From a virus (lineage: Duplodnaviria; Heunggongvirae; Uroviricota; Caudoviricetes): 7,427 nt of DNA. The stretch lies in IMG/VR virus record IMGVR_UViG_2740892035_000002; one strand, written 5' to 3'. Made by a program: the position numbers and the translations under genes. Of this stretch, positions 1-7,427 are shown in pieces. Position 1 is the first letter of the stretch. Each line of letters begins with the position of its first letter. The notes under the pieces are model-generated. The model did no database searches and was not told the origin of the DNA. It saw nothing but the letters and a program-made list of their open reading frames with translations.

Positions 1-114
1 AATCACAAAATTTCCATTGCCACCAGTAACCGTCCAGAAAGACATATCAGGGATTTGGTTTTCCCCGTTGCCCACATTCCGTTTTGCCGCTTCTCCCAAA
101 CCAACGTTTATGAA
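1..114 (-). CDS. Possible partial tail-fibre variable segment (alternative, currently unfused cassette); no start codon in window
   Basis: Minus-strand frame is open across the whole stretch and through the crossover site (hand translation FINVGLGEAAKRNVGNGENQIPDMSFWTVTGGNGNFVI), Gly/Asn-rich like tail-fibre sequence. In Gin/Cin/Pin systems the crossover site lies inside the fibre coding sequence. Weak: the + frame is also open here and 38 stop-free codons can occur by chance. Confidence 0.3.
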
Positions 115-116
115 AA
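91..116. other. hix/gix/cix-like 26-bp invertase crossover site
   Basis: TTCTCCCAAACC-AA-CGTTTATGAAAA: two imperfectly inverted 12-bp half-sites around an AA core. By hand, 20/26 identical to Salmonella hixL as I recall it (TTCTTGAAAACCAAGGTTTTTGATAA). Sits 55 bp upstream of the invertase start. Confidence 0.6.
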
Positions 117-171
117 TGCAGAGATAACGGGCAACTGGCATCATCTCCGGTTTTTATTCAGGGGGATGCTC

Positions 172-765
172 ATGCTTATTGGCTATGTACGCGTGTCAAC
201 AAATGACCAGAATACGGAATTGCAGCGTAACGCGCTGGAGTGCGCAGGATGTGAGCTGATTTTTGAGGACAAAATCAGCGGCACGAAGTCCGACAGGCCG
301 GGACTGAAAAAACTGCTCAGGACATTATCGGATGGGGATACACTGGTAGTCTGGAAGCTGGACCGGCTGGGGCGTAGTATGCGGCATCTGGTCATTCTGG
401 TTGAGGAGCTGCGCGAACGCGGCGTTAATTTTCGCAGCCTGACGGATGCTATTGATACCAGCACGCCGATGGGGCGTTTTTTCTTTCATGTGATGGGTGC
501 CCTGGCCGAAATGGAACGAGAACTCATTGTCGAGCGGACACGCGCCGGACTGGAAGCGGCCAGAGCCAAAGGTCGTATTGGTGGCAGACGTCCGAAACTC
601 ACCGCGAGTGAGTGGGAGCAGGCCGGGCGGTTGTTGGCTGCAGGGGAATCACGTCAACGCGTGGCACTGATTTTTGATATTGGCCTGTCCACGCTCTATA
701 AAAAATTCCCCGCCTCCGTGACAAAAAATAAATTGTGTCATCCCTTAGCCAACCGGGAAAAATAG
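172..765 (+). CDS. Serine DNA invertase, Hin/Gin/Cin/Pin family
   Basis: Begins MLIGYVRVSTNDQ with the catalytic Ser in the resolvase/invertase N-terminal motif; conserved VVWKLDRLGRS and GRFFFHVMGALAEMERELI; C-terminal HTH (ALIFDIGLSTLYKK). GGGGGA Shine-Dalgarno 5 nt upstream of ATG 172. The track ORF from 55 uses a TTG start and adds a non-homologous N-extension, so I prefer 172 (166 also possible). Confidence 0.9.
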   Translation: MLIGYVRVSTNDQNTELQRNALECAGCELIFEDKISGTKSDRPGLKKLLRTLSDGDTLVVWKLDRLGRSMRHLVILVEELRERGVNFRSLTDAIDTSTPMGRFFFHVMGALAEMERELIVERTRAGLEAARAKGRIGGRRPKLTASEWEQAGRLLAAGESRQRVALIFDIGLSTLYKKFPASVTKNKLCHPLANREK

Positions 766-824
766 CCTGACATCTCCGGCACAACTGAAAATATCACTCA
801 CCCATTAACCACGGAGTTAAACGG

Positions 825-2015
825 ATGAGTGACTATCATCACGGCGTGCAGGTGCTGGAGATTAACGACGGCACCCGCGTCATTTCCACCGTATCCACTG
901 CCATTGTCGGCATGGTCTGCACGGCCAGCGATGCGGATGCGGAAACCTTCCCCCTCAATAAACCTGTGCTGATTACCAATGTGCAGAGCGCAATTGCAAA
1001 GGCCGGTAAAAAAGGCACGCTGGCGGCATCGTTGCAGGCCATCGCTGACCAGTCAAAACCGGTCACCGTTGTCGTGCGCGTGGAAGACGGCACCGGTGAT
1101 GACGAGGAAACGAAACTCGCGCAGACCGTTTCCAATATCATCGGCACCACCGACGAAAACGGTCAGTACACCGGACTGAAAGCCCTGCTGGCGGCGGAGT
1201 CGGTAACTGGTGTTAAACCGCGTATTCTCGGCGTGCCGGGACTGGATACCAAAGAGGTGGCTGTTGCACTGGCATCAGTCTGTCAGAAGCTGCGCGCTTT
1301 CGGGTATATCAGCGCATGGGGCTGTAAAACTATTTCCGAGGTGAAAGCCTACCGCCAGAATTTCAGCCAGCGTGAGCTGATGGTCATCTGGCCGGATTTC
1401 CTCGCATGGGATACGGTCGCCAGTACCACCGCCACCGCGTATGCCACCGCCCGTGCGCTGGGTCTGCGCGCTAAAATCGACCAGGAGCAGGGCTGGCATA
1501 AAACGCTGTCCAACGTCGGGGTAAACGGTGTTACCGGCATCAGCGCGTCCGTATTCTGGGATTTGCAGGAGTCCGGCACCGATGCTGACCTGCTTAACGA
1601 GTCTGGCGTCACAACGCTGATTCGCCGCGACGGTTTCCGCTTCTGGGGTAACCGTACCTGCTCTGATGACCCGCTGTTCCTCTTTGAAAACTACACCCGC
1701 ACCGCGCAGGTGCTGGCCGACACGATGGCTGAGGCGCACATGTGGGCGGTGGACAAGCCCATCACCGCAACGCTGATTCGCGACATCGTTGACGGCATTA
1801 ATGCCAAATTCCGTGAGCTGAAAACAAACGGCTATATCGTGGATGCGACCTGCTGGTTCAGCGAAGAATCCAACGATGCGGAAACCCTTAAGGCCGGAAA
1901 ACTGTATATCGACTACGACTATACCCCGGTGCCTCCTCTTGAAAACCTGACCCTGCGCCAGCGTATTACCGATAAATACCTGGCAAATCTGGTCACCTCG
2001 GTTAACAGCAATTAA
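825..2015 (+). CDS. FI: Contractile tail sheath protein (P2 gpFI-like)
   Basis: 396 aa starting MSDYHHGVQVLEINDGTRVISTVST, matching P2 FI in length and sequence from memory; GGAG 8 nt upstream of ATG; first gene of the FETUD operon order. Confidence 0.93.
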   Translation: MSDYHHGVQVLEINDGTRVISTVSTAIVGMVCTASDADAETFPLNKPVLITNVQSAIAKAGKKGTLAASLQAIADQSKPVTVVVRVEDGTGDDEETKLAQTVSNIIGTTDENGQYTGLKALLAAESVTGVKPRILGVPGLDTKEVAVALASVCQKLRAFGYISAWGCKTISEVKAYRQNFSQRELMVIWPDFLAWDTVASTTATAYATARALGLRAKIDQEQGWHKTLSNVGVNGVTGISASVFWDLQESGTDADLLNESGVTTLIRRDGFRFWGNRTCSDDPLFLFENYTRTAQVLADTMAEAHMWAVDKPITATLIRDIVDGINAKFRELKTNGYIVDATCWFSEESNDAETLKAGKLYIDYDYTPVPPLENLTLRQRITDKYLANLVTSVNSN

Positions 2016-2027
2016 GGAGCCTGACCG

Positions 2028-2546
2028 ATGGCAATGCCGCGCAAACTCAAGTTAATGAACGTCTTTCTGAACGGCTACAGCTATCAGGGCGTTGCAAAGT
2101 CCGTCACGCTGCCAAAACTGACCCGTAAGCTCGAAAACTATCGCGGTGCGGGGATGAACGGCAGCGCACCGGTAGACCTCGGCCTTGATGACGATGCGCT
2201 GTCAATGGAGTGGTCGCTCGGGGGCTTCCCGGATTCGGTTATCTGGGAGCTTTACGCCGCAACCGGTGTGGATGCCGTACCGATTCGTTTTGCAGGCTCT
2301 TACCAGCGCGACGATACCGGCGAAACGGTGGCCGTCGAGGTGGTCATGCGTGGCCGTCAGAAAGAAATCGACACCGGCGAGGGTAAACAGGGAGAAGACA
2401 CCGAGTCGAAAATCTCCGTGGTCTGCACCTATTTCCGGCTGACGATGGACGGTAAGGAGCTGGTCGAAATCGACACCATCAACATGATTGAGAAGGTGAA
2501 CGGCGTCGACCGGCTGGAGCAACACCGCCGGAATATCGGCCTGTAA
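2028..2546 (+). CDS. FII: Tail tube protein (P2 gpFII-like)
   Basis: 172 aa (MAMPRKLKLMNVFLNGYSYQG...), immediately after the sheath gene with AAGGAG 8 nt upstream; size and sequence match P2 FII. Confidence 0.93.
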   Translation: MAMPRKLKLMNVFLNGYSYQGVAKSVTLPKLTRKLENYRGAGMNGSAPVDLGLDDDALSMEWSLGGFPDSVIWELYAATGVDAVPIRFAGSYQRDDTGETVAVEVVMRGRQKEIDTGEGKQGEDTESKISVVCTYFRLTMDGKELVEIDTINMIEKVNGVDRLEQHRRNIGL

Positions 2547-2602: not shown

Positions 2603-2878
2603 ATGAACAAAGAAAATGTGATTACCCTGGACAATCCGGTCAAGCGTGGTGAGCAGGTCATCGAACAGGTCACGCTGATGAAACCCAATGCCGGGACGCT
2701 GCGCGGTGTCAGTCTGGCAGCGGTCGCGAACTCCGAAGTCGATGCACTGATTAAGGTGCTGCCGCGCATGACGGCACCGATGCTGACCGAGCAGGAAGTC
2801 GCCGCGCTGGAACTGCCTGACCTTGTGGCGCTGGCCGGTAAGGTGGTCGGTTTTTTGTCGCCGAACTCGGTGCAGTGA
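2603..2878 (+). CDS. E: Tail assembly chaperone gpE (lambda G analogue)
   Basis: 91 aa (MNKENVITLDNPVKRGEQ...VVGFLSPNSVQ); position between tube and tape measure; matches P2 E. Confidence 0.9.
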   Translation: MNKENVITLDNPVKRGEQVIEQVTLMKPNAGTLRGVSLAAVANSEVDALIKVLPRMTAPMLTEQEVAALELPDLVALAGKVVGFLSPNSVQ

Positions 2879-3030
2879 CGTTTCCGAAAAATCTGTCGGT
2901 CGATGACCTGATGGCGGATGTGGCAGTGATATTTCACTGGCCGCCATCAGAACTGTATCCCATGAGCCTGACCGAACTCATCACATGGCGCGAAAAGGCG
3001 CTCCGGCGAAGCGGAAACACGAATGAGTAA
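2603..3030 (+). CDS. E+E': gpE+E' frameshift fusion product (lambda GT analogue), made by -1 slip at 2851-2857
   Basis: Hand translation of the -1 frame after the slippery site gives a 58-codon extension ending at TAA 3028-3030, overlapping the T start (ATG 3023) by 8 nt; this arrangement is the one described for the P2 FETUD operon. Confidence 0.8.
2851..2857 (+). other. Programmed -1 ribosomal frameshift slippery heptamer T TTT TTG
   Basis: The heptamer lies in the E zero frame (codons TTT 2852-2854, TTG 2855-2857), 8 codons before the E stop. The -1 frame is open from here to TAA 3028-3030 and encodes ...FFVAELGAVTFPKNLSVDDLMADVAVIFHWPPSELYPMSLTELITWREKALRRSGNTNE. Confidence 0.8.
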
Positions 3031-5470
3031 CAATGTAAAATTACAGGTATTGCTCAGGGCTGTTGACCAGGCATCCCGCCCGTTTAAATCCATCCGCACA
3101 GCGAGCAGGTCGCTGTCGGGGGATATCCGGGAAACACAAAAATCACTGCGCGAGCTGAACGGTCAGGCATCCCGTATTGAGGGATTTCGCAAGACCAGTG
3201 CACAGCTCGCCGTGACTGGTCATGCACTTGAAAAGGCTCGGCAGGAAGCCGAAGCACTTGCCACACAGTTTAAAAACACTGAACGTCCGACCCGTGCTCA
3301 GGCGAAAGTGCTGGAATCCGCAAAGCGTGCGGCGGAGGACTTACAGGCGAAATATAACCGCCTGACGGATTCCGTTAAGCGCCAGCAGCGGGAACTGGCC
3401 GCTGTGGGAATTAATACCCGCAATCTTGCACATGATGAGCAGGGACTGAAAAACCGTATCAGTGAAACCACCGCACAGCTTAACCGGCAGCGTGACGCGC
3501 TGGCGCGTGTCAGTGCGCAACAGGCAAAACTTAATGCAGTAAAACAGCGTTATCAGGCCGGAAAGGAACTGGCCGGAAATATGGCCTCGGTGGGCGCTGC
3601 CGGTGTGGGGATTGCGGCGGCGGGAACGATGGCCGGAGTTAAGTTGCTGATGCCCGGTTATGAGTTTGCGCAGAAAAACTCAGAATTGCAGGCCGTGCTC
3701 GGAGTGGCAAAAGACTCCGCCGAAATGACCGCACTACGCAAACAGGCGCGCCAGCTCGGCGACAATACCGCCGCCTCGGCGGATGATGCGGCCGGTGCAC
3801 AGATAATCATCGCGAAAGCGGGTGGGGATGTTGATGCCATTCAGGCGGCAACGCCGGTCACGCTGAATATGGCGCTGGCGAACCGCCGCACGATGGAAGA
3901 AAACGCCGCCCTGCTGATGGGGATGAAATCCGCCTTTCAGCTTTCAAACGATAAGGTCGCTCATATCGGGGATGTTCTCTCCATGACGATGAACAAAACC
4001 GCCGCCGATTTTGACGGCATGAGTGATGCGCTGACCTATGCCGCACCTGTGGCAAAAAATGCCGGTGTCAGCATTGAAGAAACCGCCGCAATGGTCGGGG
4101 CGCTGCATGATGCAAAAATCACAGGCTCAATGGCGGGGACGGGAAGCCGTGCCGTGTTAAGCCGCCTGCAGGCACCGACGGGAAAAGCATGGGATGCACT
4201 CAAAGAGCTTGGAGTGAAAACCTCAGACAGCAAAGGAAACACCCGGCCAATATTTACCATTCTGAAAGAAATGCAGGCCAGTTTTGAGAAAAACCGGCTC
4301 GGTACTGCCCAGCAGGCTGAATACATGAAAACCATTTTCGGGGAGGAGGCCAGCTCAGCCGCCGCTGTGCTGATGACTGCCGCCTCAACCGGAAAGCTGG
4401 ACAAACTGACCGCTGCGTTTAAAGCCTCAGACGGGAAGACCGCAGAGCTGGTAAATATCATGCAGGACAACCTCGGCGGTGACTTTAAGGAGTTTCAGTC
4501 CGCTTATGAGGCGGTGGGGACTGACCTGTTTGACCAGCAGGAAGGCGCACTGCGTAATCTCACGCAGACGGCCACAAAGTATGTGTTAAAACTCGACGGC
4601 TGGATCCAGAAAAACAAATCACTGGCGTCAACCATCGGCATCATTGTCGGTGGTGCACTGGCACTGATTGGTGTCATCGGTGCCATTGGCCTCGTAGCCT
4701 GGCCGGTTATCACCGGCATCAATGCCATCATCGCGGCAGCAGGCGCAATGGGGGCAATCTTCACGACGGTTGGCAGTGCTGTTATAACCGCCATCGGGGC
4801 GATTAGCTGGCCGGTTGTGGCCGTGGTGGCCGCCATTGTCGCCGGGGCGTTGCTTATCCGTAAATACTGGGAGCCTGTCAGCGCATTCTTTGGCGGTGTG
4901 GTGGAAGGGCTGAAAGCGGCATTTGCGCCGGTGGGGGAACTGTTCACGCCACTTAAACCGGTGTTTGACTGGCTGGGTGAAAAGTTACAGGCCGCGTGGC
5001 AGTGGTTTAAAAACCTGATTGCCCCGGTCAAAGCCACCCGGGACACCCTGAACCGTTGCCGTGACACGGGCGTCATGTTCGGGCAGGCACTGGCTGACGC
5101 GCTGATGCTGCCGCTTAATGCGTTCAACAAACTGCGCAGTGGTATTGACTGGGTACTGGAAAAACTCGGTGTTATCAACAAAGAGTCAGACACACTTGAC
5201 CAGACCGCCGCCAGAACTCAAGCCGCCACGTATGGCAGCGGTGGTTATATTCCGGCGACCAGCTCTTATGCAGGCTATCAGGCTTATCAGCCGGTCACGG
5301 CACCGGCTGGCCGCTCTTATGTAGACCAGAGTAAAAACGAATATCACATCAGCCTGACGGGTGGTACTGCGCCGGGGACACAGCTTGACCGCCAGTTACA
5401 GGATGCGCTCGAAAAATACGAGCGGGATAAACGTGCGCGCGCCCGTGCCAGCATGATGCATGACGGTTAA
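3023..5470 (+). CDS. T: Tail tape measure protein (P2 gpT-like)
   Basis: 815 aa; N-terminal Gln/Ala/Arg-rich predicted coiled-coil region, central Ala/Gly-rich region and a long hydrophobic Gly/Ala/Ile segment; position after E/E'. Confidence 0.93.
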   Translation: MSNNVKLQVLLRAVDQASRPFKSIRTASRSLSGDIRETQKSLRELNGQASRIEGFRKTSAQLAVTGHALEKARQEAEALATQFKNTERPTRAQAKVLESAKRAAEDLQAKYNRLTDSVKRQQRELAAVGINTRNLAHDEQGLKNRISETTAQLNRQRDALARVSAQQAKLNAVKQRYQAGKELAGNMASVGAAGVGIAAAGTMAGVKLLMPGYEFAQKNSELQAVLGVAKDSAEMTALRKQARQLGDNTAASADDAAGAQIIIAKAGGDVDAIQAATPVTLNMALANRRTMEENAALLMGMKSAFQLSNDKVAHIGDVLSMTMNKTAADFDGMSDALTYAAPVAKNAGVSIEETAAMVGALHDAKITGSMAGTGSRAVLSRLQAPTGKAWDALKELGVKTSDSKGNTRPIFTILKEMQASFEKNRLGTAQQAEYMKTIFGEEASSAAAVLMTAASTGKLDKLTAAFKASDGKTAELVNIMQDNLGGDFKEFQSAYEAVGTDLFDQQEGALRNLTQTATKYVLKLDGWIQKNKSLASTIGIIVGGALALIGVIGAIGLVAWPVITGINAIIAAAGAMGAIFTTVGSAVITAIGAISWPVVAVVAAIVAGALLIRKYWEPVSAFFGGVVEGLKAAFAPVGELFTPLKPVFDWLGEKLQAAWQWFKNLIAPVKATRDTLNRCRDTGVMFGQALADALMLPLNAFNKLRSGIDWVLEKLGVINKESDTLDQTAARTQAATYGSGGYIPATSSYAGYQAYQPVTAPAGRSYVDQSKNEYHISLTGGTAPGTQLDRQLQDALEKYERDKRARARASMMHDG

Positions 5471-5484
5471 GGAGGTAACGAAAA

Positions 5485-5964
5485 ATGATGCTCGCGTTAG
5501 GTATGTTTGTTTTTATGCGCCAGACGCTGCCACACCAGACCATGCAGCGTGAATCAGATTATCGCTGGCCGTCAAATTCCCGTATCGGTAAACGGGACGC
5601 TTTTCAGTTTCTCGGTGTGGGTGAGGAAAACATCACGCTTGCCGGTGTGCTTTATCCCGAACTGACCGGCGGCAAGCTGACGATGACCACGCTCAGGCTG
5701 ATGGCAGAGGAGGGGCGGGCGTGGCCGTTGCTGGATGGCACCGGCATGATTTACGGCATGTATGTCATCAGCAAGGTGAGTGAAACAGGGAGTATTTTCT
5801 TTGCAGACGGCACACCCCGGAAAATTGATTTTACGCTGTCGCTCACCCGCGTTGATGAATCACTGGCCGCGCTTTATGGCGATATCGGTAAACAGGCGGA
5901 ATCGCTCATCGGTAAGGCTGGCAGTATGGCGACTAAATTCACGGGTATGACGGGGGCGGGATAA
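5485..5964 (+). CDS. U: Tail protein gpU-like
   Basis: 159 aa; GGAGGT 8 nt upstream of ATG; position between T and D; matches P2 U by order and size. Confidence 0.88.
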   Translation: MMLALGMFVFMRQTLPHQTMQRESDYRWPSNSRIGKRDAFQFLGVGEENITLAGVLYPELTGGKLTMTTLRLMAEEGRAWPLLDGTGMIYGMYVISKVSETGSIFFADGTPRKIDFTLSLTRVDESLAALYGDIGKQAESLIGKAGSMATKFTGMTGAG

Positions 5965-7127
5965 TGCTGGATGCACTGACATTTGATGCAGGCAGTACGC
6001 TGACGCCGGATTACATGCTGATGCTCGACAGCAGGGATATTACCAGCAATATCAGCGACCGTCTGATGAGCATGACCCTGACGGATAACCGGGGCTTTGA
6101 GGCTGACCAGCTTGATATTGAACTGAACGATGCCGACGGGCAGGTCGGACTACCGATTCGTGGCGCTGTCCTGACGGTGTATATCGGCTGGAAAGGTTTT
6201 ACCCTGGTATGCAAAGGGAAATTTACCGTTGATGAGGTTGAACACCGGGGCGCACCGGATGTGGTCACCATCCGCGCCCGGAGTGCAGATTTTCGCGGGA
6301 CGCTCAATTCCCGCCGTGAAGGCTCATGGCATGACACCACGCTCGGTGCGATTGTTGAGGCGATAGCCTCCCGTAACAGGCTGGAAGCCAGTGTCGCTCC
6401 GTCACTGGCCGGAATTAAAATCCCGCACATCGACCAGTCGCAGGAGTCTGATGCGAAATTCCTGACCCGTCTTGCAGAACGCAACGGCGGTGAGGTGTCG
6501 GTAAAAATGGGAAAATTGTTGTTTCTCAAAGCGGGGCAGGGGATGACGGCCAGCGGTAAAAAAATCCCGCAGATTACCATCACCCGCAGCGACGGCGACC
6601 GTCATCATTTTGCGATTGCTGACCGTGGAGCCTACACCGGCGTAACGGCAAAGTGGTTACACACCAAAGACCCGAAGCCGCAAAAGCAGAAGGTAAAACT
6701 GAAACGCAAAAAGAAAGAGAAACACCTGCGCGCACTGGAGCACCCGAAAGCGAAACCGGTCAGGCAGAAGAAAGCGCCAAAAGTACCGGAAGCGCGCGAA
6801 GGTGAATACATGGCCGGTGAGGCTGATAACGTTTTTGCCCTGACCACGGTATATGCCACGAAAGCGCAGGCCATGCGCGCCGCTCAGGCGAAGTGGGATA
6901 AACTGCAACGGGGTGTAGCGGAGTTCTCCATCAGCCTGGCTACCGGTCGGGCAGATATTTACACGGAAACACCGGTCAAAGTGTCAGGCTTTAAGCGCGT
7001 CATAGACGAGCAGGACTGGACAATCACTAAGGTGACACATTTTCTGAATAATAGCGGCTTCACGACGTCCTTGGAGCTTGAGGTAAGGCTTTCTGATGTG
7101 GAGTACGAAACAGAAGATGATGAGTGA
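5964..7127 (+). CDS. D: Tail protein gpD-like (tail/baseplate hub-type protein)
   Basis: 387 aa; start ATG overlaps the U stop (ATAATG); contains an internal Lys/Pro-rich basic linker; matches P2 D by order and size. Confidence 0.88.
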   Translation: MLDALTFDAGSTLTPDYMLMLDSRDITSNISDRLMSMTLTDNRGFEADQLDIELNDADGQVGLPIRGAVLTVYIGWKGFTLVCKGKFTVDEVEHRGAPDVVTIRARSADFRGTLNSRREGSWHDTTLGAIVEAIASRNRLEASVAPSLAGIKIPHIDQSQESDAKFLTRLAERNGGEVSVKMGKLLFLKAGQGMTASGKKIPQITITRSDGDRHHFAIADRGAYTGVTAKWLHTKDPKPQKQKVKLKRKKKEKHLRALEHPKAKPVRQKKAPKVPEAREGEYMAGEADNVFALTTVYATKAQAMRAAQAKWDKLQRGVAEFSISLATGRADIYTETPVKVSGFKRVIDEQDWTITKVTHFLNNSGFTTSLELEVRLSDVEYETEDDE

Positions 7128-7208: not shown

Positions 7209-7427
7209 ATGTTTCATTGTCCTTTATGCCAGCATGCCGCACATGCGCGTACAAGTCGCTATATCACTGACACGACAAAAGAGCGTTATCACCAGTGCCA
7301 GAACGTGAATTGCAGCGCCACGTTCATCACTTATGAGTCGGTACAGAGATACATCGTGAAGCCGGGAGAAGTCCACGCCGTAAGACCGCACCCGTTGCCG
7401 TCAGGGCAGCAAATTATGTGGATGTAA
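7209..7427 (+). CDS. ogr: Late transcription activator Ogr (Cys4 zinc-finger protein, Ogr/Delta family)
   Basis: 72 aa MFHCPLCQHAAHARTSRYITDTTKERYHQCQNVNCSATF... with Cys-X2-Cys-X22-Cys-X4-Cys; GGAAGAGG 8-9 nt upstream of ATG 7209. The track ORF from 7134 starts at TTG with no RBS and ATG 7173 also lacks one. Stop TAA is the last codon of the window. Confidence 0.88.
   Translation: MFHCPLCQHAAHARTSRYITDTTKERYHQCQNVNCSATFITYESVQRYIVKPGEVHAVRPHPLPSGQQIMWM

Follow-up and report, generated by a model that had tools for sequence, protein, structure and literature searches.

The closest described systems to the locus reported here are the P segment of e14 with its invertase PinE, the G segment of Mu with Gin, the C segment of P1 with Cin, and the fibre loci of P2-like prophages. 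In e14, a defective lambdoid element, the constant part of the fibre is followed by two convergent cassettes, each with a fibre tip and a Tfa chaperone, and then by the invertase gene. Mu has the organization Sc-[gixL-Sv-U / U′-S′v-gixR]-gin, with the invertase gene outside a 3 kb segment and reading away from it, whereas the cin gene of P1 points toward the C segment and has cixL at its 3′ end. The Min system of p15B is a multi-site shufflon, and in Salmonella the hin gene, which belongs to the same subfamily and is paired with 26 bp hix-type sites, lies inside the invertible H segment and switches a flagellin promoter rather than fibre coding sequence. The fibre hotspot of P2-like phages often carries a DNA invertase (bioRxiv 10.1101/2024.10.15.618418), and phase-variable inversions have been shown experimentally both in e14 and in EPEC P2-like prophages, in the latter by sequencing and PCR (PMC4272514).

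The stretch of DNA analysed here, which we refer to as the window, is 7,427 nucleotides long and contains ten genes, all on the plus strand: an invertase gene and nine P2-type genes, eight of which are listed with their coordinates in Table 1. The order invertase-FI-FII-E/E′-T-U-D-ogr matches that of P2, and in Megablast searches this arrangement recurs in numerous Peduovirus records and E. coli chromosomes; the longer order H, tfa, tfa (reverse), fibre fragment (reverse), invertase, FI is likewise seen in many Peduovirus records and E. coli prophages. Its gene content and order place the window in the right-hand late region of an E. coli prophage of the P2-like (Peduovirus) kind. The tail operon is intact throughout, and no Rfam family matches anywhere in the window at the gathering threshold. 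The window very probably starts about 100 bp inside a working invertible tail-fibre segment of this prophage, in which inversion, aided by Fis and an enhancer, would exchange one fibre tip for another. Two minor points emerge from the comparison with P2 (L012): it carries fun(Z) where the window has the invertase module, and a G-TTTTTT-G slippery run is present at window 2850–2857, at the point where the −1 programmed frameshift giving E+E′ is annotated in P2 (L012 3186, corresponding to window 2858). This run is a conserved tail-chaperone frameshift.

Table 1. Features of the 7,427-nucleotide window, with positions counted from its first base.
Feature	Position	Strand	Sequence or basis
Start of silent alternative tail-fibre C-terminal cassette (H′v)	1–102	-	Minus-strand translation GLGEAAKRNVGNGENQIPDMSFWTVTGGNGNFVI, first 34 codons, outward from the site
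Inner half-site	91–102		TTCTCCCAAACC
Central dinucleotide	103–104		AA
Outer half-site	105–116		CGTTTATGAAAA
Invertase	172–765	+	Pfam and alignment
Candidate Fis core, 15 bp, G-N13-C	193–207		GTGTCAACAAATGAC
Candidate Fis core, 15 bp, G-N13-C	242–256		GCGCAGGATGTGAGC
Tail sheath FI	825–2015	+	P2 comparison
Tail tube FII	2028–2546	+	P2 comparison
E	2603–2878	+	P2 comparison
E′ frame	2875–3030	+	P2 comparison
Tape measure T	3023–5470	+	P2 comparison
U	5485–5964	+	P2 comparison
D	5964–7127	+	P2 comparison
ogr	7209–7427	+	P2 comparison

Close to the left end of the window, at exactly positions 91–116, is the 26 bp sequence TTCTCCCAAACC-AA-CGTTTATGAAAA, in which two 12 bp half-sites form an imperfect inverted repeat (8 of 12 positions matching) around the central AA. 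This is a crossover site of the pix/gix/cix/hix type, and there are several features to be noted. First, it is present in a single copy in the window when up to three mismatches are permitted, with none expected from 200 shuffles. Second, none of its bases differs from the e14 site that lies 67 bp upstream of pinE in E. coli K-12 (L011 5606–5631), and it is similar to the gixL/R sites of Mu and the cixL/R sites of P1; the P1 sites (TTCTCTTAAACC-AA-GG...) share the AA core, and the Mu site (TTATCCAAAACC-TC-GGTTTACAGGAA) differs in having TC at this position. Third, its centre is 68.5 bp from the start codon of the invertase gene, compared with 67.5 bp in Mu and e14 (a site-to-ATG distance of 67–68 bp in e14 and the window alike), and, like those of Mu and e14 but unlike that of P1, it is located 5′ of the gene. 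A preliminary description made from the window sequence had recognized a hix/gix/cix-like 12-2-12 site at precisely this position and had placed the window edge on an invertible tail-fibre switch. The site and the switch both stand, but not the placing of the edge: with the crossover point at 103/104, positions 1–103 are already within the invertible segment, and the edge is about 100 bp inside it.

The sequence to the left of the site behaves accordingly in alignments with relatives, in which about 50 bp are conserved and are followed by divergence, as expected of a cassette. The minus-strand peptide encoded there (Table 1) is found as an in-frame fusion to the constant part of H (...DVAGLLAYL joined to GLGEAAKRNVG...) in three genomes with the segment flipped (L013, L007 and L008). 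In RefSeq this silent cassette appears as a ‘hypothetical protein’ or ‘gp53-like domain-containing protein’ of 163 aa (window 1–141, minus strand; L005 6650–7141); the start codon used is an ATG (window 141, minus strand) from the spacer that separates the site from the invertase gene, and the frame reads from there through the crossover site. The RefSeq ORF with this start is most likely an annotation artefact of the silent cassette.

The invertase is encoded by an intact ORF of 197 aa from ATG 172 to the stop codon at 763–765; a longer ORF from TTG-55 in the mechanical ORF list was rejected as an artefact. Its N-terminal part matches the Resolvase domain (Pfam PF00239, E 4.6e-52, profile positions 2–144 of 145) and its C-terminal part the HTH_7 domain (PF02796, E 5.5e-13), which is also matched by Hin's DNA-binding domain (1hcr, E 9e-9). 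Amino acid identity is 86% with PinE of e14, 79% with Cin and 77% with Gin, and chains from the Gin crystal structures 3uj3 and 4m6f align without gaps over residues 1–182 (E 1.7e-94). When the protein is aligned with Gin, Cin and Pin, no substitution occurs at Y5, R7, S9, D33, R42, D64, R65 or R68; Ser9 is the predicted nucleophile. Residues specific to Fis-dependent invertases comprise a Fis-contact patch (Hin Q151, R154 and L155) and a basic helix B (Hin 47, 48 and 51) (McLean et al., PMC3798978). Both are conserved here, the former as Q150, R153 and L154, which are invariant columns in the alignment with Gin, Cin and Pin, and the latter as the basic residues K46, K47 and R50. By its sequence, then, the protein is a small serine recombinase of the Hin/Gin/Cin/Pin subfamily, closer to invertases than to resolvases over its full length, and the earlier account of it as a complete member of this family is borne out.

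The name ‘Resolvase’ carried by the Pfam domain is generic, but it invites a quite different reading, in which the 26-mer is a chance palindrome-like sequence beside a resolvase-type gene left by a transposon or plasmid and has nothing to do with tail fibres. We consider this scarcely credible. Chance does not account for the 26-mer (see above), which is identical to a known crossover site; Gin is the best structural relative (317.8 bits, E ~1e-94) with gamma-delta resolvase far behind (115.5 bits, E 1e-32); and there is no transposase among the genes of the window. As described below, the partner site is inverted rather than direct, and the inversions seen in natural isolates break exactly at the sites. 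Together with the e14-identical site, the inverted partner and these flips refute both a resolvase or transposon origin and a chance match.

A partner site is present in a near-identical genome, that of E. coli EC9952 (NZ_CP104595; L005), in which the prophage adjoins yegQ/trhP. This genome has the window at 7426 of 7427 bases, plus an IS insertion; the single mismatch is at position 759 (A in the window versus C, Glu to Asp). An exact look-up of the window's invertase protein gave no match, which this one amino acid difference from the twin explains, and a scan of genome_contigs for the exact 116-mer gave none either, so that the sequence upstream of the window is taken from the twin. The partner, TTCTCGCATACC-TT-GGTTTGGGAGAA, is located upstream in inverted orientation at L005 5158–5183, within the tail-fibre gene H (4344–5630), and 1905 nt separate the two arms. 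A search with the 26-mer allowing three mismatches missed this partner because the outer half-sites differ, and it was located with an inverted-repeat finder and a half-site search. The inner half-site and core (the first 14 bases) are the same in both EC9952 sites as reverse complements, the partner core TT being the complement of AA, and the half-site 12-mer occurs in 24 kb of the EC9952 locus at these two sites only, compared with 0.10 expected. The same inverted pair is found in four further relatives (L001–L004), and the prophage from which the window derives would be expected to have its partner at the equivalent place in H.

The organization between the two sites is that of a fibre switch. 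The left site encodes ...LLAYLGLGE... in frame within H, and marks the boundary in H between constant N-terminal and variable C-terminal parts. Two cassettes converge between the sites, each consisting of a fibre C-terminus and its own chaperone. The plus-strand cassette has the C-terminus of H (Hv; Phage_tail_fib plus Collar domains are found in H) and then a 200-aa Caudo_TAP chaperone (Tfa), and the minus-strand cassette has a 147-aa Caudo_TAP chaperone and the fibre C-terminus H′v, whose match to Gp53-like_C is weak and below the Pfam cut-off. Both fusion products of H are open reading frames, one of 428 aa (L005) and the other of 426 aa (L007, L008 and L013). The preliminary description had expected an inverted partner and alternative fibre C-termini with their chaperones to lie upstream of the window, and in the twin genome they do, although window 1–102 is itself already cassette sequence. 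The EC9952 copy of the invertase gene is interrupted by ISEc12 (IS21 family, istA/istB) after about codon 6 (L005 7189–9768, corresponding to window 183–188), with an apparent 5–6 bp target duplication (CTATGT). The twin is therefore not a demonstration of an active switch, and its copy is probably locked in one orientation, barring the action of another invertase in trans.

Both orientations of the segment, which the earlier description had anticipated, occur among public genomes. The two junctions expected after inversion were built synthetically and searched for in complete E. coli genomes. The flipped left junction, joining the H constant part to the window's cassette, is present at a coverage of at least 80% in 29 complete genomes as one continuous ‘phage tail protein’, and the native, window-type junction, in which the gp53-like cassette is silent, in 161; biased inversion, selection and clonal sampling are candidate causes of this skew. 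In L007 the entire segment of 1940 nt aligns in reverse with that of L005 while the flanks are collinear. The most informative pair is that of two sister isolates from one study, 23CRST027 and 23CRST031, in which the flanks are 99.9% identical and a segment of 1915 bp, a close relative of the window's segment, is inverted at 99.95% identity. Since these isolates differ by a clean flip, the inversion must be recent in this lineage of elements. In addition, the inner half-site is polymorphic (T/C) at its position 4, and the variant is in the right site of one isolate and the left site of the other, while the outer half-sites stay in place. The polymorphism thus travels with the segment and strand exchange occurred between position 4 and the outer half-site, consistent with exchange inside the site at the central dinucleotide. 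These natural flips, bounded by the sites in near-identical genomes, indicate that the sites support inversion and not resolution, and the same would be expected of the source strain and of this exact protein. The invertase of 23CRST027 is annotated as frameshifted, with one alignment gap (L014 4299–4891 versus L013 6192–6785), so the gene may truly have been inactivated once the flip had occurred, or a homopolymer may have been misread in sequencing.

It might be argued that the site and the invertase are present in the window as a frozen relic, with the segment no longer inverting because of poor expression or decay of the prophage, its orientation fixed and without current function. Inactivated copies are indeed common among the relatives (ISEc12 in the twin, frameshifted or interrupted invertases in L007 and L014, and a shorter annotation in the P2-T22 phage described below), a simple scan of window 1–900 detected no sigma-70-like promoter for the invertase, and the 161 to 29 distribution is uneven. 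Nonetheless, we think this unlikely. The invertase of the window is full length with its catalytic and Fis-contact residues all conserved, the crossover site is perfect, the tail operon is wholly intact, and near-identical sister isolates differ by a clean, recent flip. A working switch is probably the better description of the locus.

An enhancer had been predicted within the first ~150 bp of the invertase ORF, and a homologue of a known one is present there. The P1 record annotates an ‘enhancer of Cin-mediated C-segment inversion’ at nucleotides 19–90 of cin, and this aligns without gaps to window 190–261. Two candidate Fis cores within it (Table 1) are nearly invariant among gin, cin, pin and the window, and are spaced 49 bp apart from start to start; the spacing of the Fis sites of Hin is 48 bp. 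Synonymous conservation among the four sequences (window, gin, cin and pin) is higher in codons 7–30 (5/19) than in codons 31–180 (14/96), but not significantly so (Fisher p = 0.31), and the assignment is for this reason made by homology. Window 190–261 is thus a predicted Fis-dependent recombinational enhancer inside the invertase ORF, in the part of the ORF named in the earlier description.

These components suggest how the switch would operate, and the steps from synapsis to host range are established for the Hin and Gin systems. Dimers of the invertase would bind the two inverted 26 bp sites, one at 91–116 and the other about 1.9 kb upstream, where the source genome should have an inverted copy of TTCTCCCAAACCAA within gene H. 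Host Fis bound at the enhancer (~190–261) would assemble the sites into a synapse, or invertasome, in which double-strand cuts at the 2 bp AA/TT core, a 180-degree rotation of subunits and religation would invert the segment of ~1.9 kb. The fibre tip would then be translated from the cassette lying next to the constant 5′ part of H, with that cassette's own chaperone co-expressed: either the collar-domain C-terminus with the 200-aa chaperone, or the gp53-like C-terminus with the 147-aa chaperone, the latter cassette being silent in the orientation of the window. As the tip would be set by the cassette that faces H, a population of lysogens is predicted to yield phage of two receptor specificities, and hence of two host ranges.

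The invertase may not be confined to this segment. Gin, Cin, Pin and Hin cross-complement one another, and Fin of the P2-like prophage Fels-2 reportedly flips the H segment of Salmonella. With a site identical to that of e14, and with up to eight matches to the invertase region per genome, the enzyme could act mainly in trans on other segments, such as the P segment of e14 or the fibre switches of other prophages, with the neighbouring site as just one substrate among several. We regard this as a tentative possibility, one that would supplement the main explanation and not displace it. The layout in cis, with a site 68 bp upstream of the gene and a partner in H, is conserved in all of the relatives examined, and we retain the local fibre switch as the principal role.

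At the 3′ end of the invertase gene, homology to P2 starts near window 733, and the last 38 nt of the gene overlap the sequence homologous to the pF activator site of P2; the binding site for the activator, Ogr (L012 1056–1084), corresponds to window 728–756, and the start of F-operon transcription to about window 799–801. The invertase ORF therefore reads into P2 late-promoter DNA, which encodes a C-terminal tail of ~15 aa that Pin, Cin and Gin do not have. Since the ORF ends in the Ogr-activator site and the two orientations are unequally represented (161 versus 29), a switch that is biased or coupled to late-gene activation may be imagined, for example one in which transcription or translation across the activator site (728–756), or the binding of Ogr, modulates the supply of invertase, with one fibre as the default and the other as a rare variant, as opposed to a neutral 50:50 bet-hedge, but we judge such a refinement to be quite improbable.

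With e14 the locus shares the adjacent site, the layout of the fibre segment and a homologous tfaE-type chaperone cassette (89–92% DNA identity). It differs from e14 in belonging to a complete P2-like prophage, in the tail on its invertase, and in having P2 gpH with a Phage_tail_fib domain as the constant part of its fibre. Mu has the same disposition of segment and invertase gene, although its segment is longer (3 kb versus ~1.9 kb) and it differs in phage family and cassette content. Unlike the p15B shufflon there are only two sites here, and one EPEC locus also departs from this in having three inverted repeats and four variants. Among P2-like prophages (EPEC E2348/69, Fels-2 with Fin, pro483, S164 and MET_P1_103_31) both the type of element and its position between the tail-fibre genes H/G and FI are the same, DNA identity in the invertase region is 94–97%, and the only difference is allelic, in the pair of cassettes carried. 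Nothing at the locus departs from the picture given by e14, Mu, P1 and the P2-like prophages, and we therefore rate it as a system of an already known kind, real but ordinary.

Its relevance beyond annotation is slight, and it advances no open question. What RefSeq calls a ‘hypothetical protein’ beside the invertase is a tail-fibre cassette in its silent state, and the prophage's fibre gene can end in either of two C-termini; both orientations must be considered in predicting host range or in making use of the fibre or of a tailocin-like tail. The pair of sister isolates provides a clean natural flip with the crossover mapped within the site.

Two relatives illustrate other changes at the sites. 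E. coli 02B21CPO003B (L006, 4649–7063) has a prophage backbone that shares 99.9% identity with the window from window position 82 on, but the pair of fibre and chaperone cassettes is wholly different from the window type, with the change starting at the site; there is also slight divergence in the sites themselves (CTCTCCCAAACC... on the right, TTCTCGCATACCTTGGTTTAGGAGAT on the left). The cassettes have been replaced here, with the crossover site as the boundary. In P2-T22 (phage P2 from E. coli O157:H43 T22, KC618326), in which the annotated invertase CDS is shorter (495 nt), a 16 bp insertion is present beside the right-hand site (L002 6048–6078); the outer half-site is replaced by a copy of the left outer half to give a perfect 31 bp inverted repeat, and the displaced old half-site CGTTTATGAAAA follows it.
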